This document shows positions 4,211 to 52,886 of a stretch of 64,000 bases of DNA, piece after piece; positions within the stretch are counted from its first letter, which is position 1; the number at the start of each line of letters is the position of its first letter. Both the position numbers and the translations under genes were made by a program. Under the pieces are notes generated by a model, which did not search any database, was not told the DNA's origin, and was given only the letters and a program-made list of their open reading frames with translations. The stretch comes from a virus (taxonomy: Duplodnaviria; Heunggongvirae; Uroviricota; Caudoviricetes): positions 27,767 to 91,766 of IMG/VR virus record IMGVR_UViG_3300013383_000021. One strand, written 5' to 3'.

Positions 4211-5236
4211 ATGCCACGTAAGACAAAGTATAACAATATCACTAGCCCTGCGCTTTTAGAGCAGGTTAACCCGGAAAACAAAAGATTAAAGAATGACTTC
4301 CTTACTTATCTAAAGTCAGTACAAAGAAGTAATGGAACAATTGATGGGTACTCCCACGACCTCGACATCTTCTTTGTATGGAACTTACAGAATAACAATA
4401 ACAAGTTCTTCGTTGACTTATCAAAGCGCGATTTGATCTCGTATCAGAACTGGCTTATCTACGAGAACGAAAACTCCCCCGCGAGAGTCCGGCGTCTAAA
4501 GGCCGCCCTCTCTTCCCTATCCAATTACGTGGAGAATATTCTGGATGATGAGTACGAAGGGTATCGCCCTATTGTAAGAAAGATCGAGTCTCCAATTAAC
4601 CAGCCAGTTAGAGAGAAGACTGTGTTCTCCGATGAACAATTGCAGTCGTTGCTAGACGTCCTAGTAAAAGAAGAAAAGTTTACCCAGGCGTGTGCGCTAT
4701 CACTTGCTATGTGCAGTGGCAGAAGAAAGTCAGAGCTGTTACGTTTCAAGGTAGATTGGTTTACAAGAGACAATATTATCTACGGGTCGCTGTATAAGAC
4801 TCCGGAGAAAGTAAAGACAAAAGGTGCTGGCAACGGTAAGTATCTTTACTGCTACACCCTTTCAAAAGAGTTTGATCCTTATCTGAGTCTCTACATGGGC
4901 TGGAGAAAAGAAAATAACGTGGAGAGCGAATGGCTGTTTTACGACAAAGCCGATCCCACGAAACAAATGAATATTTCTACGCTGAACAGCTGGGCTGTTC
5001 GGTTTAGCAAAATATTGGGCGTGCCGTTCTATTGGCACGCCTTGCGTCATTTCTTCACCACGAAACTTGCGCGGCTTGGTTTGCCGGATAGTGTCGTGCA
5101 GACTGTTATCGGTTGGAGTTCTGCCGATATGGTGCGGCTATATGACGATACTCCCGATGACGAACAGCTGGAAAAGTATTTTGGTGAAGATGGAATTAAA
5201 ACAGATGTTAAGGCGGCTGGGTTAGCCGACCTGTAA
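4211..5236 (+). CDS. tyrosine recombinase (XerC/D-phage integrase family), second recombinase in window
   Basis: N-terminal SAM-like core-binding region. Catalytic motifs GRRKSELL (Arg I), WHALRHFF (HxxR) and VRLY (Tyr). RBS gaggtgg. Confidence 0.75.
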   Translation: MPRKTKYNNITSPALLEQVNPENKRLKNDFLTYLKSVQRSNGTIDGYSHDLDIFFVWNLQNNNNKFFVDLSKRDLISYQNWLIYENENSPARVRRLKAALSSLSNYVENILDDEYEGYRPIVRKIESPINQPVREKTVFSDEQLQSLLDVLVKEEKFTQACALSLAMCSGRRKSELLRFKVDWFTRDNIIYGSLYKTPEKVKTKGAGNGKYLYCYTLSKEFDPYLSLYMGWRKENNVESEWLFYDKADPTKQMNISTLNSWAVRFSKILGVPFYWHALRHFFTTKLARLGLPDSVVQTVIGWSSADMVRLYDDTPDDEQLEKYFGEDGIKTDVKAAGLADL

Positions 5237-5253
5237 CACGAACGAATGAAAGG

Positions 5254-5577
5254 TTGAATGAAATGATTAACAACAAGCAATTTGTAAGACGAGTATTGGA
5301 AATGGCAGAACATCTGTCTGGCGTTAAGTATAGAGTAAAGGATGGCGAGCTGATGGTAGACGCTGTTAAGTTCGCTATTGAAAAGGCTCTGGCCGAAGGT
5401 GAAGACATCTCTCTGCACGGCTTTGGTGCTTTCAAGGTGCATGAATATCCCGAACGCCAGGCGACAATCAACGGACAGACTTATAATGTTCCTCCTCGTA
5501 AGGGTGTGAAGTTTAGCCCTGGCAAGCGGCTGCGCGATGAAGTTGCAAAGGGTCGTTTCCAGACTATTGACCTGTAA
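5254..5577 (+). CDS. HU/IHF-family nucleoid DNA-binding protein
   Basis: GFGAFKVHEYPERQATINGQTYNVPPRKGVKFSPGKRLRDEV matches the HU arm/beta-ribbon signature. Confidence 0.85.
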   Translation: MNEMINNKQFVRRVLEMAEHLSGVKYRVKDGELMVDAVKFAIEKALAEGEDISLHGFGAFKVHEYPERQATINGQTYNVPPRKGVKFSPGKRLRDEVAKGRFQTIDL

Positions 5578-6551: not shown

Positions 6552-8323
6552 CAGAGTACACAAAGACACGACAGATAAGACTTGACCCTACTAAGTCAAG
6601 AGAGGAGCGCGTCTTCGAAGGTGTTGCCGCCTGGGCTGCTTTCTATCGAGCAAACCCACATAGATTTGCAAAAGATTATCTAGGCATCAGCCTAAAGCCG
6701 TTTCAACAGATACTTATGGTTGAGATGGATCAGTGCAACTATACTGCTTATATTGCAGCGAGAGGACAAGGCAAGAGCTTCCTTATCTCTCTTTACTGCT
6801 GTGTGCGGTGTATCTTGTACCCCGGTACAAAAGTCTGTGTCGCTGCTGGGCGTAGGTCTCAGAGTATCAATATTCTGGAGTATATTCAGAATCAGTTCAT
6901 GGTAAACTCGCCAGGACTGAAGCGCGAGATTAAGACTATTACGACAGCCCCTAACAACCCTATTTGTATCTTTGAAAACGGGTCAACGATTAAGGTTGTA
7001 ACTGCTAGTGATACAGCTCGTGGTAACAGAGCGAACATTATTATCTGTGATGAGTTTAGAATGATCCCTGAGTCAGCCATCAATGAGGTACTAAGGAGAT
7101 TTCTTTCTGACGAACGTCATCCCCCGTATATTGATAACCCAAAGTATGCTCATATTAAAGAAAGAAACAAAGAGATCTATTTAACCTCCGCCTGGTTTAA
7201 AGATCATTGGTCGTACAAGAAGGTCGAAGATTTTTATGCCAAGATGGTGCAGGCCGGTCCGTACTTTGTGTGTGGTCTCCCTTATCAACTCTCTATTAAA
7301 GAGGGACTGTATAGTGCAGAGCAGGCAATCGAAGAAATGTCCGAAGCAACATTTAATGAGTCCCAGTGGGCGAGAGAAATGGAGTGTTGTTGGACTGGCG
7401 ACGTCGAAGGTTCTTTCTTTAACTACGAAGCGATTAACCGTACACGGCGACTGAAGTTCCCAATGTTGCCGTCCTACGCATTGCCTGGCAAGCTGGCTGC
7501 CAAGGATATGGGAATCGTGAATAAGCAGGTAGGCGAGATAAGAATCATCTCTGTTGACGTTGCTTTAATGAGTTCTACTAAAAAATCAGAGAACGACGCG
7601 ACAGCAATCTTTGTGAATCGAATGACGCCAAATGCACACGGTCGCTACTATAGTAATATTGTTTATACGGAATCTCACGAAGGTGAGACGACACAAAGGC
7701 AGGCATTGCGTATACGACGGTTGTACGAGGAATACTCAGCAGACTATATCGTGATTGACGGCAAAGGTGTCGGCGCTGGTGTTGTTGACCTGCTGTTAGA
7801 TGACATCTACAATCCTGATACAGGAGAGACGTATGGCGCTCTCTCCTGTTATAACAACCCTGACCTTGCTGCTCGGTGTACCGACATGGACGCACCAAAA
7901 GCTCTGTGGGTAATAAATAATCAAACTGCACGCTTCAATTCGGAGTGTGCTTTTTCTTTGAGAGAAGGGTTCCGCTCTGGAAAGATTCGTTTGCTTGCAA
8001 ATGAATATGACGCGGAAGATTATCTTTCTGAGGTACGTGGTTGGGGGTCTATCAACCCGGTCGAGAAGACCGTAGTGCGGCTTCCATATGTGGACACTAC
8101 GTACCTAGTTGACGAAATTATTAACTTGAAATACGAAGACACTCAATCAGGTGTAAAGGTATACGAAAAATCTGGTTATCGAAAAGACCGGTATTCATCC
8201 CTTTCTTATAACTACTGGGTTGCGTGTCAGTTAGAAGACAAGTCGCGCATGAAGAGAAAGTCTAATATAGACATCTCTGAATTGCTGCGATGCCAAAGAG
8301 CACCCAGACTTAGAAGGAGGTGA
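6548..8323 (+). CDS. terminase large subunit
   Basis: Walker A-like AARGQGKSF and Walker B IIICDEF. C-terminal nuclease-like region. 591 aa. Confidence 0.85.
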   Translation: MTEYTKTRQIRLDPTKSREERVFEGVAAWAAFYRANPHRFAKDYLGISLKPFQQILMVEMDQCNYTAYIAARGQGKSFLISLYCCVRCILYPGTKVCVAAGRRSQSINILEYIQNQFMVNSPGLKREIKTITTAPNNPICIFENGSTIKVVTASDTARGNRANIIICDEFRMIPESAINEVLRRFLSDERHPPYIDNPKYAHIKERNKEIYLTSAWFKDHWSYKKVEDFYAKMVQAGPYFVCGLPYQLSIKEGLYSAEQAIEEMSEATFNESQWAREMECCWTGDVEGSFFNYEAINRTRRLKFPMLPSYALPGKLAAKDMGIVNKQVGEIRIISVDVALMSSTKKSENDATAIFVNRMTPNAHGRYYSNIVYTESHEGETTQRQALRIRRLYEEYSADYIVIDGKGVGAGVVDLLLDDIYNPDTGETYGALSCYNNPDLAARCTDMDAPKALWVINNQTARFNSECAFSLREGFRSGKIRLLANEYDAEDYLSEVRGWGSINPVEKTVVRLPYVDTTYLVDEIINLKYEDTQSGVKVYEKSGYRKDRYSSLSYNYWVACQLEDKSRMKRKSNIDISELLRCQRAPRLRRR

Positions 8324-8328
8324 GGCTT

Positions 8329-9828
8329 ATGAGTGAAAAATTTGTGGTAGATAGTATAGCGAAGGATAAACCTAAACAAGAGTTTGCTCTCAAGGATACG
8401 TTCAGGATGCCAGAGCGGTTTAAGGTTTTGAATCGTCTTATTATGCGAGATCTGAATCGGCGTGATTACAGACCCACATTTAAGAAGTACACCAAAGAAC
8501 AAATCCTGGACTTCCTAGAGGATCCCTACACGCATGAGAAACAGTTGCGGGATGCCTGCATCAATGTATACGGTGTTAGCTCTTACTTCCGTCGTCTCAT
8601 TCAGTATTTCGCTATGCTAAATGACCTGGCTTATGTTGTGTCTCCATTCGGGATAGATACATCAAAAGAAAATAAGACAAGTGTGAAGCGTAACTTTAAT
8701 AAAGTTCTCAAGGTAATGGAGTCATTTAATGTGAAGTCGCAGTTTAGAAAGATTCTAACTGTGTGCTTTAGAGAGGACGTCTATTACGGGACGCTATGGG
8801 TAACACAAGATAATATTACAATTCAAAGACTTCCGTCTGATTATTGCAGAATTTCTTCAATAGAGGGTAATGTTTACAATGTAAGCTTTAACTTCACATA
8901 CTTTGCAACATACCCCGACAGACTTCAATTCTTCCCAGAAGAGTTCCGTATAAAATACGATGAATACAAGAGGCGTTCTCTCGATAGATGGATTGATTTG
9001 GATTGCCCAACGTCTTTTGCCATTAAATGCACGAATGATATTGATTCCTATGCCCTTCCCCCATTCATTGGCATTATGCCTGAGATATATGACCTAGAGA
9101 GTTATAAAGAACTCAAGCTCACCAAGACGGAGCTAGAGAATTATGCAATCTTGGTTATGAAGCTTGGCCTTACTTCCGACGGCCAATGGCAAATGGATTT
9201 TGATAAGGCGAGAGAGTTTTGGATGAACCTTGACGATGTTCTTCCTGATGCGGTCGGTTCGGTCTTGACGCCGATGACGGTTGATAAAATCTCGTTCGAA
9301 AAATCTTCCAGCACAGATTCGAACGCGGTAGCTGATGCGGTCAGCTCATTGTTTGATTCCGCTGGTGTCTCTTCTCTGCTGTTCAATAACAGCAGCAAGT
9401 CATCCAGTAACGCTCTGCTGCTTTCCATTAAAGCCGACCAAGGTATTACTTATGGCGTTGTGAAGAGCATTGAAGATATGGTCAATCGGTATATCCAGTC
9501 ACTGAATTTTGGTAAGAAGTTTAGAGTTACGTTCCTAGACTCTTCTCCATTTAACAGAGACGAGCTAGGTAATCAGTATCTCAAGATGTGCCAGGTTGGT
9601 ATGCCTATGGTGTCTTATCTGGCTGCAACGTATGGTATGCCGCAAGCAGATATGAACTGTCTCAATTACCTTGAGGATGATATCTTGGATATTAAGAATC
9701 GCTTTATGCCTCTTCGCTCTACAAACACTATGAGTTCTGATTCACTAGCAGAAGCTGGTCGTCCAGAGGCATCTGCGCAGGATCTTAGTGACAACGGAGA
9801 AATCTCACAAGAGAGAGACGAAGGATAA
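8329..9828 (+). CDS. portal protein (putative)
   Basis: Approx. 500 aa. Immediately after terL. RBS gaaggaggtg 7 nt before ATG 8329. Acidic C-terminus. Confidence 0.6.
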   Translation: MSEKFVVDSIAKDKPKQEFALKDTFRMPERFKVLNRLIMRDLNRRDYRPTFKKYTKEQILDFLEDPYTHEKQLRDACINVYGVSSYFRRLIQYFAMLNDLAYVVSPFGIDTSKENKTSVKRNFNKVLKVMESFNVKSQFRKILTVCFREDVYYGTLWVTQDNITIQRLPSDYCRISSIEGNVYNVSFNFTYFATYPDRLQFFPEEFRIKYDEYKRRSLDRWIDLDCPTSFAIKCTNDIDSYALPPFIGIMPEIYDLESYKELKLTKTELENYAILVMKLGLTSDGQWQMDFDKAREFWMNLDDVLPDAVGSVLTPMTVDKISFEKSSSTDSNAVADAVSSLFDSAGVSSLLFNNSSKSSSNALLLSIKADQGITYGVVKSIEDMVNRYIQSLNFGKKFRVTFLDSSPFNRDELGNQYLKMCQVGMPMVSYLAATYGMPQADMNCLNYLEDDILDIKNRFMPLRSTNTMSSDSLAEAGRPEASAQDLSDNGEISQERDEG

Positions 9829-39953: not shown

Positions 39954-40003
39954 TGGTGGAGATAAGCGGGATCGAACCGCTGACCTCTTGAATGCCATTC
40001 AAG
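39954..40003 (-). tRNA. 3' half of tRNA-Ala(GGC), anticodon stem to CCA, forming the attP core
   Basis: Reverse complement reads cttga-atggcat-tcaag aggtc agcgg-ttcgatc-ccgct tatctcc a cca. Anticodon GGC. T-loop TTCGATC. U70 present for the G3:U70 Ala identity pair. No D-arm or 5' acceptor strand upstream. Confidence 0.6.
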
Positions 40004-40030
40004 AAAAACCTTATATTTTTTATCATCCTA

Positions 40031-47578: not shown

Positions 47579-48112
47579 CTAGTTTGTAATCCATTTGACC
47601 CATACGCCATCTTGCTTCTTCCAAACAATCTGGTTACTGCTACCACGGAACTGCAGGGTGACATCTCGCTTATCAATCTCAAACCTTCCGTCTACCACCA
47701 CATCACAGCTCCCAATCACATCTCTTCTCAAAAGGAGGCTCTCGTTTGCCTTCCTGTTGCAGATGTTCAGATTCGGGTTAAGGATTTCTTCCATGGTGTA
47801 TCCCGTATAAATCCAAATTGTTTTTTCAGGGAACGCACCCTTCAACTCTCTTGCTAATTCCAAAACGTCTTGCAAATTTTCATATGCAAGTGGCTCTCCC
47901 CCAAGGATTGAAACCCTCTTTATATACGGTTTACTTGCAAGTATTAAGAGCTTATTTTTCACCTCAGTTGTAAACTCTTTGCCGCCATCGAACGCCCACG
48001 CCCCAGGGTTAAAGCACCCTGGGCAGCGGAACGAACATCCTTGCACAAAGACGGAGACGCCTGCGTGTTTGCCATTGCATATTTCAAACGGAACAATCTG
48101 CGCATATCTCAT
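47579..48112 (-). CDS. nrdG: anaerobic ribonucleotide reductase activating protein (radical SAM)
   Basis: CSFRCPGC CxxxCxxC cluster. Overlaps the nrdD stop (ATGA). Confidence 0.8.
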   Translation of the reverse strand: MRYAQIVPFEICNGKHAGVSVFVQGCSFRCPGCFNPGAWAFDGGKEFTTEVKNKLLILASKPYIKRVSILGGEPLAYENLQDVLELARELKGAFPEKTIWIYTGYTMEEILNPNLNICNRKANESLLLRRDVIGSCDVVVDGRFEIDKRDVTLQFRGSSNQIVWKKQDGVWVKWITN

Positions 48113-48591
48113 TACAGAATCACCCCGCTATGTTTTGTTCTCATAGAAACCTCTTGCTGTTTACCTTCATTAAACGCTGTCGTGTAATCGCCTGTGAGAT
48201 ACCCGGTCACTCTTCTCAATCTCTGGATCTTGTTGCCGCCGCACATAGGACAAACATCTGAGATTTCATCCGTATAACCGCAGCCCATACAAGTATCGTT
48301 CGGGACATTCACCGCAAAATAGGGGATGTCCTTATCTATTGCGTAGTTAACAATGTCCTCTAGCGCCTCCAGGTTGTTTTTTACTGTTGAGTCTAACTCG
48401 ATATATGTGATGCATCCAGCGCTTGAATACCCGGTCAACTGGGCTTCAAGGTCAATCTTTTCGTAAGGGGTCATTTCCTCCCATACGGGGATATGCATCG
48501 AGTTAGTAAAGAATTTTTTGTCTGACACGTTCGGAATTTCGCCGTATTTTTCTTTGAACTTCTTCATAGATGTGTAACAAAGATTTTCCGC
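48112..48591 (-). CDS. nrdD: nrdD exon 4 (C-terminal Zn ribbon and glycyl-radical domain)
   Basis: AENLCY... CMGCGYTDEISDVCPMCGG... RRVTGYLTG (glycyl radical motif RVxGY). Confidence 0.75.
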   Translation of the reverse strand, partial: AENLCYTSMKKFKEKYGEIPNVSDKKFFTNSMHIPVWEEMTPYEKIDLEAQLTGYSSAGCITYIELDSTVKNNLEALEDIVNYAIDKDIPYFAVNVPNDTCMGCGYTDEISDVCPMCGGNKIQRLRRVTGYLTGDYTTAFNEGKQQEVSMRTKHSGVIL

Positions 48592-49568
48592 CATAAATGG
48601 ACTATGTTTTCACCCTAGGCACTCTAGGGGCCTGGTCTTTCGGGCTTGCACCCTACTCTACTCGCTTCTTACTTTCGATAGTCTCTACACATTTACAATA
48701 AACATTTTAGATTTTTATTCTTTTAAACCAAACGGGTGCTTTGCTCCATTCGGCTTTCCCTCTTTTTATCATGCCGTTAATATTAGAAATGCCATAGTGC
48801 CGTTCTGCTAAAGCCGCGCTGGCAAAACGCTTGACTTCTTCATCCGTCTCACGATCATAAGCCGCAACAATCTCATGTTCTCTCGGGCCCTCACCGTGAA
48901 ATGTGAAGTATGTCTGTTTTCTTAGCTTGTCACCTTTGTCCCTACATTGCCGCGCGATTGTCGAGGCATGAATACCTGTTGCCCGCGCCGCCTCTTTAAC
49001 CGACCCAAATTCTGCTATAAGTATATTTGTTGCAGAGTCATATTGATCAACAGGCATACTTTGGGAGTCTTCCCAACCCATGTCGTTTTTTGCTAGCCCG
49101 TCATCAAACGCTTGCTTTGTATTTTCTGAGATAGTTCCCCATCTTAGATTACTCATGTCGTTATTTTTCTTGTCATTGTCAATATGCATTACTATTGGCA
49201 AGCCACATGGATTAGGAATAAATGCGTTAGCCACAAGTCTATGTACTCGTTTACTAATGTTCTTACCGGGGTATTTTATTCCGCAATACCAATAGCCGTG
49301 GTTTGAATATTTTGCCTTAAGAAAATATTCCCCTAGACGTGGATTACCTTGTCTAGTTTCTACTCCATACACATTACCTCTTGGGTCTATGTAATCCAAC
49401 GCTCCTTCAATCAGAGCCGCGTCTTCTGGTAGCTTGTTTATGTAATTTGTCAAACAACCACCTTTCTTTTTTTATGTAAAATGTTTATTGATTTAGCACG
49501 GCGTTCTTGGATTCGCCGTTTTAGCCAGGTTTTTCATTTCACCTTTCGATGAAAGCCCCCACGGATTC
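48592..49568 (-). mobile_element. group I intron 3 of nrdD carrying an HNH homing endonuclease
   Basis: Exon frames are rejoined as YFTP|AENLCY (T4 NrdD: STPAENLCY). 5' splice site follows U. The intron ends in G. R-like gagactatcg and S-like atagtcc elements lie on the - strand. Confidence 0.65.
48707..49453 (-). CDS. HNH homing endonuclease (intron-encoded) with C-terminal NUMOD-like DNA-binding region
   Basis: HRLVANAF...HIDNDKKNNDMSNLRWGTISEN. Confidence 0.8.
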   Translation of the reverse strand: MTNYINKLPEDAALIEGALDYIDPRGNVYGVETRQGNPRLGEYFLKAKYSNHGYWYCGIKYPGKNISKRVHRLVANAFIPNPCGLPIVMHIDNDKKNNDMSNLRWGTISENTKQAFDDGLAKNDMGWEDSQSMPVDQYDSATNILIAEFGSVKEAARATGIHASTIARQCRDKGDKLRKQTYFTFHGEGPREHEIVAAYDRETDEEVKRFASAALAERHYGISNINGMIKRGKAEWSKAPVWFKRIKI

Positions 49569-50117
49569 AGGGGTAAAATACACACCAAAGTTCAATTTAT
49601 ATTTTTCTTTAAACTTCGCGCATCTCTCCTTAAATAAAGCCTCGATATGTTTTGCTAAGGCCATACCTTGCGGTGTTGTGTGATTACACCCGATAAGAAT
49701 TTGTAAAGCTTCCGCTAGGCCGATCTGGCCCACGGCCAAAGTTCCATGTTTTAGGGCAGATTGGATACCCTCTTCGGGGATATACCCCTCCATAATTCTG
49801 TTATCATACATAAACTTTGCAGACTCCGGTGGCTGAGAACAAACCAGCTCAAATCGCTCAAGCAGCATGTCTTTAGCTTCGTAGATTTTCTTATCAAGCA
49901 AACTCATAAACTCTCTCACGCAATCGTATAGCATTACGTCGTCGCAATTTGTTCTGTCAATGATCGCTAACGGGGTAAATCTATTGTCCTCCTCGACCTT
50001 CTTCACTGCCTCAATAGCAAGGGTTGGGAGAATAATTGTGACCGGGCAGATATTACCTCTGCCGTCTTTCAGTTGGCCAAGACCGTTGATATCAAACCCG
50101 TTTGCAGTACGGCATCC
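49569..50117 (-). CDS. nrdD: nrdD exon 3
   Basis: GCRTANGFDINGLGQLKDGRGNICPVTIILPTLAI... and TLAVGQIGLAEAL...FGVYFTP align with T4 NrdD MGCRSF...DGRNNLGVVTLNLPRIAL and SLGYIGIHE...FSLYSTP. Confidence 0.7.
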
Positions 50118-50446
50118 CCAATATGTTCATACAAGTTCGCTACGCTTGTACCGTCCTCCAAGGACCGCTATATGTTGCCATATAGTTCAGACTATGTCAT
50201 ACCCCTGTATTGCTCTATCCTTTACAGGGGCCTCATCTTTTCGCGTCGCTTGACGCTACTCTACTCACTTCTTTGCACCAGTGTTTCTCTTGTGCTATGT
50301 TTTCGATAGTCGTTTAGCTTTTAACCAGCCTCAAACAGGTATTTAGCACGTGGTTATCCTTATGCCGATTTTATAAGGACTTCCCATGTTTAGATGAGTT
50401 TTTCAAAACACATTGCTGCGTTAAGCCACAGTTTCTTTATGGTGCT
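50118..50446 (-). mobile_element. group I intron 2 of nrdD (ORF-less, approx. 330 nt)
   Basis: Removes the in-frame stop between exon 2 (...DNPCTYF) and exon 3 ((G)CRTANGF). Carries R-like cgactatcg and S-like atagtct elements, and the ctactctactc motif shared with intron 3. Confidence 0.6.
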
Positions 50447-50738
50447 AAAGTATGTACAAGGATTATCTTTGTCATACCCTTCGTTACCTGACCAGTCTAC
50501 ATTCGCGTAGTTCGGGTACAACCTTTGCGCGGTAGACTTCAGTGCTAATTGAAACAAGTCATAGTTTGGATCTCCAGGTTTTCTGTTAATACCTCGTTTA
50601 CACTGAAAGATTCCGCAAGGAAAAATAGGAGTCTTGTGCAGCTTCCCCGTCCCGTTAATAGAGTTCTCTAGAAGTGCTTTAATTACCATCCTGCCCTCTG
50701 GGAGTGTACAAGTCCCATAATTCAATGAAGTGAAAGGT
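50447..50738 (-). CDS. nrdD: nrdD exon 2
   Basis: PFTSLNYGTCTLPEGRMVIKALLEN...KTPIFP...DPNYDLFQLAL...YP aligns with T4 NrdD TPFVTITFGTGTDWTERMIQKAILKN...ITPIFPK...DPNYDIKQLAL. Confidence 0.7.
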
Positions 50739-51903
50739 CAAATTTGTTATCATAAAAGTTTATTATCTTTTACCTCCGGAGCTTTCGCCCTTTTACCCAC
50801 CATCATTTGGTGGCGGTTCAGCATACGTATTCATCTTCGGCTTCACCCGTTAAGATGCGGACACTCTTGGCGGTATTATATTCTCTATACGAGGGTCAAC
50901 CGCTATGCGTTACGATACCATAGGATTTTTATTTCCTTTGGTTATCTCGGCGCTACCATATTTGTACGCTTCTGCGTACACTAAATCACAAAGACGCTTT
51001 TTTCTTTCCATATACACATGTGCGTCATCATACATATAATCTATTAGCTTTAACATGCTACTGTTTTTTCTATATGCTATCGACCACAGGTTATCTTTTT
51101 CTCTATAAAGGTTCACCTTTTCAACCTCGGCATTAGCGAATAGGAACTCGACCAAGTCTTCTAGAAATTGTTTGTTCCCTTTGCAAAAACGAACCGCTTT
51201 CGTGTGGGACTTTCTTCCATGTGCCGCTCTTGAGTAATACGACACAGAACCGTCCCCGTCCAGTACCCCTCTGATAAAATGTCTGTAGAACTGTTTCGGG
51301 ATATTTTTGGGGAACGCAACAGAAAGAGATCTGTCCGGTGCGATACCATACTGCTTTAAATCAGTCACCATCTTACTCGACAGTATGCTTAACGAACAAC
51401 AGCCCCGCCCATCTCCTGTCACTCTTTTGTTCGAATTAAGCTCTTCTTTTAGCTTCTCTAGTAAGTAGGCGTCTGATTTTTGGAGCGTCAGCGAGACTAG
51501 TGGTTGTCTGCCTTTTGTGCTATGAATACAGCCGTCTGTTATGATCAGCCCTAAAAAGTACGCTTTACATTCTGTGTTAATCGTCTCGAAATAATCCTCT
51601 ATTAAATCAGGCGAAAACAAACGCACTTTTGAGTATCTCTTAACGCGGTATTCATTCAGCACCTTTATTACGGATGGTATACTAATATTGAACGTCTCCA
51701 CAAGATGCTCAAGAGTCATTGGTCTGCTCTTGTAGTATCTAACCAGCGCTTCTTTCACTTCCTTTGTTATATGCTTTGGTATATCTCTCACCTTCTTTCT
51801 GCGACATACAGCGATGATATAAAATGATTTGTGATTTATTAGGCTCCGCCGATATTGCCCTTTATTGTTTCAGTATATTTCTATAAAGCCAGCCACTTAT
51901 CTT
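50739..51903 (-). mobile_element. group I intron 1 of nrdD carrying a LAGLIDADG homing endonuclease
   Basis: Proposed junction ...SRSGNQ(L)|PFTSLNYG. 5' splice site after tt. The intron ends in G. Stop codons lie on both sides of the endonuclease ORF, so this is not an intein. Confidence 0.6.
50910..51791 (-). CDS. double-motif LAGLIDADG homing endonuclease (intron-encoded)
   Basis: AYFLGLIITDGCI and FIRGVLDGDGSV. Confidence 0.85.
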   Translation of the reverse strand: MRDIPKHITKEVKEALVRYYKSRPMTLEHLVETFNISIPSVIKVLNEYRVKRYSKVRLFSPDLIEDYFETINTECKAYFLGLIITDGCIHSTKGRQPLVSLTLQKSDAYLLEKLKEELNSNKRVTGDGRGCCSLSILSSKMVTDLKQYGIAPDRSLSVAFPKNIPKQFYRHFIRGVLDGDGSVSYYSRAAHGRKSHTKAVRFCKGNKQFLEDLVEFLFANAEVEKVNLYREKDNLWSIAYRKNSSMLKLIDYMYDDAHVYMERKKRLCDLVYAEAYKYGSAEITKGNKNPMVS

Positions 51904-52886
51904 AACTGGTTTCCACTTCTTGATTGCAGTGTGTTAAGGTTATGGTACATGCCCTCAGCCGCTTGCATGGTTTCACGTTCCGTCATTTTCAAAGCATACC
52001 GATATACCCTGTCGTTTTTCTTCCAGAACGGATCGTCAATACTCCTATCTTTGTCCGAGCCTTTCATAGAGAAGAGTTTCGAATTAGTATCGTCGCATAA
52101 CCATTCAAGTCCATCCCTGTAGTGTTTCCAAAAACTCTTTCTTACATATGGAACCATTGTCCAGTCAATATGGCTCGCAGAGACACCACCATATTGCTGG
52201 AGGCTCTGCAGCTGGAAGATAACAGCAACCAACTGAAAGGCCGTCCCTACAGAACCAGCAGAACGAATGTCGGTTTGCCTTGTATCAAATCCATTTTCCA
52301 GCAATTTATCAAAAGGAATTGTGAGACAGTTGTGACTGCCCACCGCATAGCTTGACAAGTCATGGATATAAATCTCATTGTTCAAATGATTATTTCTCGC
52401 CATCTCTGACATGCAATAATCCAGCGCGTATTGCTTCATAACAACAGCGTTTGCCTCGCCCATACGCCCACCAAACGATCTCTCGTCAACATTTGCATTC
52501 TGGTTTTGCACGTTGCTCGCCATAAGCTTCTCAGATACGGCTTTAATTAGGTCACTGCCACGCTCTCTAGCTTTCGTCCGCTCATTTCTATATAAGATGT
52601 ACGCTTTCGCCACATCTTTTCTGTCGGACTCCATAAGTTTGGCTTCAACAATGTCCTGAATTTCCTCGACAGACTTGCTTTGCTTCATTTCAGCAGTCAC
52701 AGCAACCGCAATTTCCCTTGCAACAGCTGCACATTGCCCATTTTCTTCCCCATCGACGCTCACAAACGCCTTCTTCACCGCTTCTTCTATCTTTTTAGGG
52801 GAAAATTTCTCTAACCGACCGTCTCTTTTGATTACAAATAGCTCGATAATCAACCACAACCTTCCACAATTTCGCTTGCGACCCAA
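51904..52886 (-). CDS. nrdD: nrdD exon 1 (ATP-cone and N-terminal catalytic region)
   Basis: VIKRDGRLEKFSPKKIEEAV (ATP-cone). NANVDERSFGG. IYIHDL. The start codon is uncertain because the region upstream of the ATP-cone is poorly defined. Confidence 0.75.

Follow-up and report, generated by a model that had tools for sequence, protein, structure and literature searches.

Among the ribonucleotide reductase (RNR) genes of phages, nrdD is the one most often split (PMC3653736). In the jumbo gut (Jug) phages it is fragmented in 95 of 104 genomes, in one of them into four pieces, and metatranscriptome reads confirm splicing at some of the junctions, with none seen at one (PMC12880540). Other phage genes with several group I introns include orf142 (three) and nrdE (two) of Staphylococcus phage Twort, with the nrdE of Brochothrix phage A9 lying in four fragments (PMC3653736, PMC11878797), and the DNA polymerase and terminase genes of the Bastillevirinae, with two or three introns (PMC11878797). 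Here we describe the nrdD locus at positions 48112-52886, minus strand, of a 64,000-nt window (the whole stretch of DNA analyzed, numbered from its first position) of the IMG/VR record IMGVR_UViG_3300013383_000021, a Caudoviricetes virus. With a probability that we put at roughly 0.88, this is the nrdD of a phage of ~93 kb, interrupted by three independent mobile group I introns.

The nrdD gene of phage T4 (sunY) carries a group IA2 intron encoding I-TevII, and the two loci have in common the host gene, the order nrdD then nrdG, and a mobile, endonuclease-bearing group I intron. T4 nrdD has one intron, as an earlier sequence-only reading of this DNA had stated, whereas three are present here, and the T4 site maps to about aa 256-290, coinciding with none of the sites in the window. 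The T4 endonuclease is of the GIY-YIG type, whereas those encoded here are of the LAGLIDADG and HNH types, and T4 NrdD has no ATP-cone match in its alignment with the window NrdD. The Jug phages are gut phages whose nrdD, like that of the window, is fragmented, by group I introns or endonucleases; they form another lineage, however, with genomes of 360-402 kb and Bacteroides hosts, whereas the window phage has ~93 kb and its nearest cultured relative infects Thomasclavelia. The Twort, A9, and Bastillevirinae genes resemble the locus in holding several group I introns, some with HNH genes, near functionally critical residues, but the host genes and phage lineages are different. The view of the sequence-only reading that three introns are unusually dense is too strong in the light of the Jug phages, of three-intron phage genes, and of relatives of the window phage that have two or three nrdD introns or inteins; multi-intron phage nrdD is already known, and the density here is not exceptional.

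The features of the locus are listed below in the direction of transcription (↓, splice site; ORF, open reading frame; L001 and L002, two related loci described further on).

51904-52853, minus strand: nrdD exon 1, from a TTG start; ATP-cone and N-terminal half of NRDD, aa 1-317, with codon 317 split as tt↓a
50739-51903, minus strand: intron 1, group I, IA-like, 1165 nt; last base G50739; absent exactly in L001
50910-51791, minus strand: ORF of a predicted LAGLIDADG homing endonuclease, within the P5 loop of intron 1; 293 codons from GTG
50439-50738, minus strand: nrdD exon 2, aa 317-417; PFTSLNYG...PIFPCG...DPNYD...TYFST, then AU of the Met417 codon
50119-50438, minus strand: intron 2, group I, IA-type, 320 nt, ORF-less; last base G50119; absent exactly in L001 and L002
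49569-50118, minus strand: nrdD exon 3, aa 417-600; third base of the Met417 codon, GCRTANG, through ...LNFGVYFTP
48592-49568, minus strand: intron 3, probable group I, IA-type, 977 nt; last base G48592; absent exactly in L002
48707-49453, minus strand: ORF of a predicted HNH homing endonuclease, within the P6 loop of intron 3; 248 aa, I-HmuI-like, with NUMOD1
48112-48591, minus strand: nrdD exon 4, aa 601-759; AENLCY..., Cys4 zinc ribbon, RRVTGYL, stop
47579-48112, minus strand: nrdG, for the NrdD-activating radical-SAM enzyme; start ATG and nrdD stop overlap (TAATG)

The closest cultured relatives are the Thomasclavelia phages TR-TP1 and TR-TP2 (PQ571309, PQ571310), whose NrdD is 65% identical to that of the window; a megablast search of the locus against cultured phages returned only a 358-bp stretch of these two. 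The TR-TP1 intron is homologous to intron 2 and occupies the identical position (ACCAU↓...AUAUUG↓GGG), with the sequences of P1, P3, and P7 in common and compensated changes in P2, P5, P7.1, P7.2, P8, and P9. It is 877 nt long, carries an HNH ORF in P6, and is the sole interruption of its nrdD, whereas intron 2 has 320 nt and no ORF; intron 2 is an ORF-less version of the intron that carries the HNH gene in TR-TP1. The TR-TP1 record (L099, PQ571309, 62758-65881) annotates two NrdD coding sequences and an HNH coding sequence, not an intron.

Six sizeable minus-strand ORFs lie in 48112-52886, namely four pieces of nrdD, the LAGLIDADG ORF, and the HNH ORF, and gene callers return nrdD only as fragments of 318, 99, 122, and 160 aa. 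Joined from the TTG at 52853, whose MIIELF is the gene-caller start in the relative P0001, the four exons form 2280 nt, or 759 codons and a stop, with zero internal stops. The spliced product, searched against profiles and structures in a version without the three residues at the second junction, matches Pfam PF13597 NRDD with 475 bits over profile positions 2-562 of 562, and also the Pfam ATP-cone (83 bits) and Gly_radical. Its residues 7-753 match PDB 8p23, a solved Prevotella-type NrdD (E 1e-118), and T4 NrdD (PDB 1h78) is matched at E 2e-77. The ATP-cone spans aa 6-93, followed by PIFPCG at aa 354, DPNYD at aa 373, GCR at aa 418-420 with the active-site Cys, Cys419, in GCRTANG of exon 3, the Cys4 ribbon CMGCG..CPMCG at aa 701/714 (701-718), and RRVTGYL from aa 726 (726-732). 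A full NRDD domain, GCR Cys, Cys4 site, glycyl-radical motif, and adjacent nrdG mark the product as a class III NrdD. Four collinear minus-strand nrdD pieces at these coordinates, interrupted by stop codons, with the ATP-cone, PIFP/DPNYD, GCR, and Zn-ribbon/glycyl-radical blocks distributed over them, had already been recognized from the letters alone; a stop closes each piece, all motifs were located, the order matches NrdD profiles including T4 1h78, and the comparison with NrdD profiles that had been suggested as a check gave an end-to-end match.

A search space of 5.8 billion proteins yielded thousands of uninterrupted NrdD homologues at 70-75% identity, plus P0001 at 96%, and the spliced NrdD aligns gap-free over all junctions with these homologues (70-96% identical). 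The contig encoding P0001, L001, has the same gene order in DNA that is ~88% identical and is without all three introns; in it, window 51904 adjoins 50738, and window 50439 abuts 50118 (L001 positions 6211/6212). In L002 (IMG/VR, ~90% identical), intron 1 is kept and introns 2 and 3 are absent at exactly the predicted nucleotides. The empty sites are therefore nucleotide-exact for introns 1 and 2 in L001 and for introns 2 and 3 in L002, with the frame restored, and the end of exon 1 at U51904 is fixed by these alleles. The exons join as 51904↓50738, 50439↓50118, and 49569↓48591, with the sequences cag tt↓a cct at GNQL↓PFTS, acc aU↓...G↓g gga for intron 2, and cct↓gcg at YFTP↓AENLCY, so that two of the three introns fall within codons (tt↓a, aU↓g). 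Intronless junctions of the L001/L002 type read GGAAACCAGTTACCTTTCAC and TATTTTACCCCTGCGGAAAATC.

The splice sites GNQL↓PFTS and YFTP↓AENLCY had been proposed exactly as the empty-site alleles have them. The third proposal, DNPCTY(F/L)↓GCR, is wrong because all homologues read TYFSTMGCR (...DNPxTYFSTMGCRTANG... at the second junction) and the exon-2 frame continues through FST; by the homologues and the L001/L002 DNA, the junction is TYFSTM↓GCR and the 5' splice site lies 9-10 nt further downstream. Spliced models with a TYL↓GCR or a TYLTYWGCR join were dropped on the homologue reading and the L001 DNA, which fixes the junction. In all three introns the U before the 5' site pairs with a G of the internal guide sequence (IGS) and the last base is G (..UUUG↓, ..AUUG↓, and ..UAUG↓ in introns 1, 2, and 3), and guide and exon covary in relatives (L098 GUCAGGU/GCCUGAC; L053 CUCCU/GGGAG). 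The locus is not an assembly artefact because it recurs over 5 kb in three other public assemblies, two at 100% identity and the third, a 93-kb contig, at 99.98%.

Intron 1, whose estimated length of ~1165 nt is exactly 1165 nt by the empty sites, has P1 CCAGUU/GGCUGG (IGS 51894-51889), P3 GGGCA/UGUCC, P4 UCGGCG/CGCCGA, P5 AAAUCACAAA/UUUGUGAUUU (51837-51828 with 50992-50983), which brackets the LAGLIDADG ORF, P6 GAU/AUC with a distal hairpin, P7 GCAUA/UAUGC (50908.. with ..50821), P7.1 GCGGU/ACCGC, P8 CAUCUU/AAGAUG, and, as P9, a GAAA-capped hairpin that is followed by a terminal hairpin. A hand-drawn P3 GGGCAA/UUGACCC with a bulged P4 was abandoned on comparison with the intron family, in which P3' is the UGUCC after P7.1 and P4 is UCGGCG/CGCCGA.

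The family was collected from IMG/VR with a core pattern built on the window, L059, and L060, and comprises at least 14 loci, several of them compact ORF-less introns of ~250-300 nt. Two members (L098 and L094) share the site of intron 1 (..GU↓A CCU UUU), four (L085, L087, L088, L090) sit 5 nt upstream at GGAAAU↓CAA UUG CC, and the remaining members are in other genes. In an anchored alignment of P3, P4, P6, P7, and P7.1 (24 bp, 13 sequences, helix positions fixed by conserved flanks), 99.3% of the cells are paired and 10 pairs are changed on both sides; none of 500 shuffles reaches the observed values, and slid controls are 30-47% paired. P3 and P7 cross each other, forming the pseudoknot by which group I cores are defined. 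When seven natural ORF-less members and the ORF-deleted window intron are aligned unguided with MAFFT, RNAalifold gives 52 pairs, 37 of them compensatory, and recovers P3, P4, P6, P6a, P7.1, P8, P9, and the terminal hairpin. Between them, the family covariation and RNAalifold supply the conserved core of intron 1, that is, the P3/P7 pseudoknot, P4-P6, and P8.

The last ~110 nt of the LAGLIDADG ORF also form the ribozyme elements P5', P4', and P6. Substitutions between the window and L002 amount to 3.5% in the 113 nt of 5' non-coding intron and 2.9% in the 171 nt of 3' non-coding intron; within the ORF they amount to 13.8% over its first 770 nt but to 2.7% over its last 112 nt, which means that this end of the ORF is structural RNA as well. 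The two motifs of the encoded protein, LGLIITDGC and RGVLDGDGS, justify its earlier description as a double-motif LAGLIDADG endonuclease, as do matches to Pfam LAGLIDADG_3 (35.2 bits, cutoff 22.5), LAGLIDADG_1 (23.1 bits, cutoff 23.1), and PHROG 4645 (187 bits); with both motifs and an above-threshold profile, it is a predicted endonuclease at the level of sequence. A search of PDB with the protein gave zero matches. Relative to the L002 copy it is 88% identical, with 63 synonymous and 35 non-synonymous codon differences, and the ORF has therefore been under constraint. LAGLIDADG ORFs in phage group I introns are uncommon, with one case in a survey of the Bastillevirinae (PMC11878797), and the homing endonuclease types usual for phages in reviews are GIY-YIG, HNH, PD-(D/E)xK, and EDxHD. 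Two loci with a LAGLIDADG protein 30% identical to this one (L003 and L004) were rejected as relatives of the locus; they sit in an unrelated gene.

Intron 2 has no ORF, as had been stated, but is 320 nt long by the empty sites instead of the ~330 nt proposed. Its helices are P1 CCAU/GUGG with the U·G at the splice site, P3 CUCAUCU/AGAUGAG, P7 GACUA/UAGUC, P7.1 and P7.2, P8 CCCCUGUA/UACAGGGG, and P9 with a GCAA loop; beyond the modelled P9 follow the hairpins P9.1 GUCCU/AGGAC and P9.2 UACAAG/CUUGUA and then the terminal G. The group I covariance model Rfam RF00028 (Intron_gpI) matches it with 59.3 bits (gathering score 50; E 1.4e-13) at 50448-50168 over model positions 1-253. A default-filter Rfam scan of the whole window reported only a tRNA, and intron 2 surfaced under the permissive mode.

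Intron 3, described before as ~977 nt long and encoding an HNH endonuclease, has exactly that length and holds an HNH_3+NUMOD1 ORF. Its helices are P1 CCCCU/GGGGG (IGS 49560-49556, U·G at the splice site), P2 CUUUC/GAAAG, P3 CCUGG/CCAGG, P4 ACGGCG/CGCCGU, P6 CAAUAAACAUUU/AAAUGUUUAUUG, a perfect 12-bp stem (49490-49479 with 48707-48696) that brackets the HNH ORF, P7 GACUA/UAGUC, P7.2 GGGU-GCAA-GCCC, and P8 CCCUAG/CUAGGG. In L053, L204, and L205, homologues lie at precisely this CCU↓GC site, in L205 within an nrdD whose product is just 23% identical to that of the window; they have the same short tail after P7' and compensating changes in P1 (CUCCU with GGGAG), P2, P3, P4, P7.2, and P8. The U·G pair at the 5' splice site is present in 6/6 sequences (introns 2 and 3 and four relatives). 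The motif GACTATCG / GAGTAGAGTAG occurs in introns 2 and 3, and the P7/P7.1 motif of the Rfam-positive intron 2 is also in intron 3. The ctactctactc core that the sequence-only reading saw in both introns is indeed shared, but it implies no special link between them because this motif (GACUAUCGAAA...AGUAGAGUA) is class-wide among phage introns, with at least 120 IMG/VR loci. The helices between P7 and P3' presumably put all three introns of the window in subgroup IA of the Michel-Westhof scheme.

The HNH ORF starts with TTG behind AAAGGTGG and matches Pfam HNH_3 (34.7 bits, cutoff 24.8) and NUMOD1 (23.5 bits, cutoff 22.8), PHROG 59 (131 bits), and, over residues 45-119, PDB 1u3e (E 1e-4), the I-HmuI of the DNA polymerase intron of Bacillus phage SPO1. 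It thus has the HNH plus NUMOD module within an intron loop that is typical of I-HmuI, with the same HNH_3 + NUMOD architecture, although it resembles I-HmuI only weakly and lies in another intron, with another target gene. The protein is identical on 4 contigs, and peptide patterns found no further relatives of it in IMG/VR. Intron 3 ends ...UUAUG↓GCG (48592-48594), with an AUG in frame before exon 4 and no convincing ribosome-binding site; exon 4 is thus listed by the ORF finder as an ATG-started ORF of 160 aa. In L001 the target of intron 3 is rewritten (L001 6736-6797, corresponding to window 49594-49569 + 48591-48588): 31 nt encoding the near-invariant LNFGVYFTPAE are replaced by ~63 unrelated nt. 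L001 nrdD hence consists of a 595-aa ORF (...KYKYRKQ*) and a 175-aa ORF (MKKMDFLNLFIQMENQKKNLCY...) with an ATGA overlap, and the cluster of the 595-aa form comprises 16 sequences; this may be a homing-resistant split gene, or a scar.

Exon/intron boundaries, an intact and constrained frame, the group I core architecture (less firmly so for intron 3), and the presence/absence polymorphism of each intron are directly established. The proposal that nrdD here lies in four exons separated by three group I introns, two of them with different endonucleases, is thus carried by the empty sites, the NrdD match, Rfam, and covariation. Several observations weigh against it or qualify it. The Rfam group I model, suggested beforehand as a check, is above threshold for intron 2, but intron 1 is undetected, whole or as ORF-cut halves, and scans of L001-L004 gave no intron 1 match; the best score in the intron 1 family is a full-length, sub-threshold match of its ORF-less member L086 (24.9 bits, E 0.034). 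Intron 3, cut at its ORF, gives a weak, truncated 3'-half match (14.7 bits, E 0.084), and it has 8 nt only after P7', ending in G48592, with no P9 hairpin. The helix count on introns 2 and 3 and four relatives (97% of cells paired, 25 of 35 pairs changed on both sides, slid controls 34-52%) is supportive, but because its strands were chosen by hand it does not test the model independently. In L002 (2995-3010), the LAGLIDADG ORF starts with ATG behind GAGGTGA; the same codon is ATA in the window (51780-51791, minus strand), where the remaining in-frame starts are a GTG overlapping the ribosome-binding site and, 24 codons further on, an ATG (the gene-caller choice, 269 aa); given the ATA, the endonuclease may be poorly or not expressed. 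Self-splicing of introns 1-3 is itself a prediction from DNA.

These points bear on a first alternative, in which all three inserts are group I introns but at least one of them (intron 3 or 1) needs a protein helper or splices inefficiently, throttling NrdD. The helper might be a host chaperone or the endonuclease of the intron itself in the role of a maturase, and maturases of the LAGLIDADG type occur in bacteria (Thermotoga 23S intron, PMC3984707). The overlap of the LAGLIDADG ORF with structural RNA in intron 1 (P5'-P6) and the very short tail of intron 3 and its same-site relatives L053, L204, and L205 would fit such a dependence. That tail, however, is conserved across divergent NrdD hosts (23-63% identity) and is so apparently compatible with function, and ORF-less members of the intron 1 family (L098, L086, L091, and others) persist without an encoded protein. 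We regard a helper-dependent or throttled gene as improbable.

Far less credible is a gene in pieces, in which the fragments would be translated separately and assemble to an active enzyme without RNA splicing, as for nrdA/mobE of Aeromonas phage Aeh1. Split RNR genes of this type exist (PMC3653736), in the relatives L001, L075, and L079 nrdD apparently lies in separate ORFs that have gained start codons, and the AUG that ends intron 3 is in frame with exon 4. In the window, however, the 5' ends of exons 2 and 3 have neither a start codon nor a ribosome-binding site, two junctions are within codons, and pieces of 100 aa (exon 2) and 183 aa (exon 3) would break the barrel core next to the active-site Cys. 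Moreover, covariation supports group I cores in the inserts, which have U·G at each 5' site and a terminal G.

We give equally little credence to a decaying nrdD pseudogene that has been broken by selfish endonuclease insertions and encodes no functional NrdD. Such a gene would agree with the mere fragments seen by gene callers and with the absence of any intron from the default Rfam scan of the window. The exons, however, are without internal stops, and frameshifts within them, the sign of pseudogene fragments named in the sequence-only reading, occur in none; the joins restore the frame to the nucleotide in agreement with intronless alleles, all catalytic motifs are present, and nrdG is intact and translationally coupled. 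Synonymous/non-synonymous codon differences from L002 number 51/6 in exon 1, 14/5 in exon 2, 49/11 in exon 3, and 33/6 in exon 4 (147/28 over the whole gene); divergence is thus mostly synonymous in all four exons, and nrdD is therefore a working gene and not debris. Inteins are ruled out, as stop codons close all three inserts and two of these sit within codons, and so are group II introns, for which no family match was found in the region (Rfam, E up to 10) and for which intron 1 leaves just ~280-400 nt outside or overlapping its ORF.

A working nrdD interrupted by group I introns can be set beside those of its relatives. Among 80 related IMG/VR loci, nrdD is uninterrupted in 59 and interrupted in ~20, and the clade has at least eight insertion sites. 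Near aa 317, at GNQL, related introns occupy two positions, that of the window and another at a distance of 5 nt. At G418↓C419, 4 nt from window intron 2, a different intron family (L066 type) is found in at least eight loci, and the same position holds inteins in L077, P0003, and P0038, with the active-site Cys as the +1 residue, so that three different elements lie within 4 nt of this Cys. The site-2 introns of L066, L078, L080, and others were considered as homologues of intron 2 and set aside, as they belong to that different family 4 nt downstream. At aa 600, two intron families occupy one CCU↓GC position, and further sites are near aa 176 (an intein), 225, 308, 549, and 731. Three group I introns interrupt nrdD in L083, and two each in L064, L144, L171, L194, and L134.

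The inteins of P0003 and P0038 have 364 aa and lie at STMG↓C...SHN↓CRTANG, with that of L077 at about 7278-8128; the one near aa 176 is an in-frame nrdD intein of L047 (6510-7417) ending ...HNC. In L075 (7194-8038) and L079 (7203-8338), nrdD is interrupted at ~aa 400-414 by inserts unlike introns or inteins, and the downstream part opens with its own ribosome-binding site and ATG a little ahead of ...STMGCR, possibly as a gene in pieces.

The family of intron 1 is characterized by just one P7.1 helix, in which the loop UGAAUAAAUAUAAU is conserved, by its spread over several phage genes, by Rfam scores of at most 25 bits, and by an endonuclease gene in the P5 loop whose 3' end doubles as P5'-P4'-P6. 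We tentatively suggest, with doubts outweighing confidence, that intron 1 represents a distinct IA-like phage intron lineage and that the nrdD of this clade is an arena in which unrelated intron families and inteins vie for a handful of shared nucleotides. On contigs with members of this family, L086 has two group I introns ~50 nt apart (4272-4494 and 4548-4814, minus strand; Rfam 24.9 and 33.3 bits), and L093 has a second group I intron at 8599-8903 (plus strand; 68 bits). L085 (~1880-1910) and L087 (~5350-5380, intron strand) have a near-consensus sigma-70 promoter (TTGACA, 17 nt, TATAAT) within the intron at the GGAAAU↓ site, upstream of the endonuclease ORF.

After transcription, each intron of the window would fold into its group I core, and an external guanosine would attack after the U of the P1 U·G pair (U51904, U50439, and U49569). 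The freed exon would then attack after the terminal G (G50739, G50119, and G48592), and the four exons would be ligated to an mRNA for the 759-aa NrdD, which NrdG would activate. At co-infection, the LAGLIDADG and HNH enzymes, whose activity and specificity are predicted, would cut or nick intronless nrdD alleles, and repair would copy the introns in (homing).

For annotation, the consequence is that gene callers and the default Rfam scan miss one intact 759-aa NrdD and give at least six fragments with "HNH endonuclease" or "hypothetical" coding sequences. The whole family of intron 1 scores poorly under the standard covariance model, which constitutes a blind spot. The allelic series with zero, one, and three introns gives nucleotide-exact homing sites for the LAGLIDADG and HNH enzymes, to characterize or repurpose, and the clade provides further cases of introns and inteins coinciding at RNR catalytic residues. 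The known workings of group I introns are unchanged by the finding.

Downstream of nrdD, nrdG matches Pfam Fer4_12 (137 bits) and Radical_SAM as well as PHROG 626 (anaerobic RNR small subunit). Genes upstream of the pair encode a PolIII-alpha-type DNA polymerase and a dNMP kinase, a downstream one a dUTPase, and the neighborhood is a nucleotide-metabolism module or operon of the phage. Elsewhere in the window, positions 39957-40027 (minus strand) hold a tRNA gene (Rfam 31.5 bits against a threshold of 29) with several non-canonical stem pairs. At the left edge, the window boundary truncates a fourth group I intron, leaving its 3' part at positions 1-213 of the plus strand (Rfam Intron_gpI, 5'-truncated, 21.2 bits); its P7 ACGACUA, GAUAUAGUCU, and P9 AUAUCCGGAAACGGAGGG are like those of L171-type introns, and it ends ..GUAAAAG just ahead of an ORF region that starts at ~214-251.

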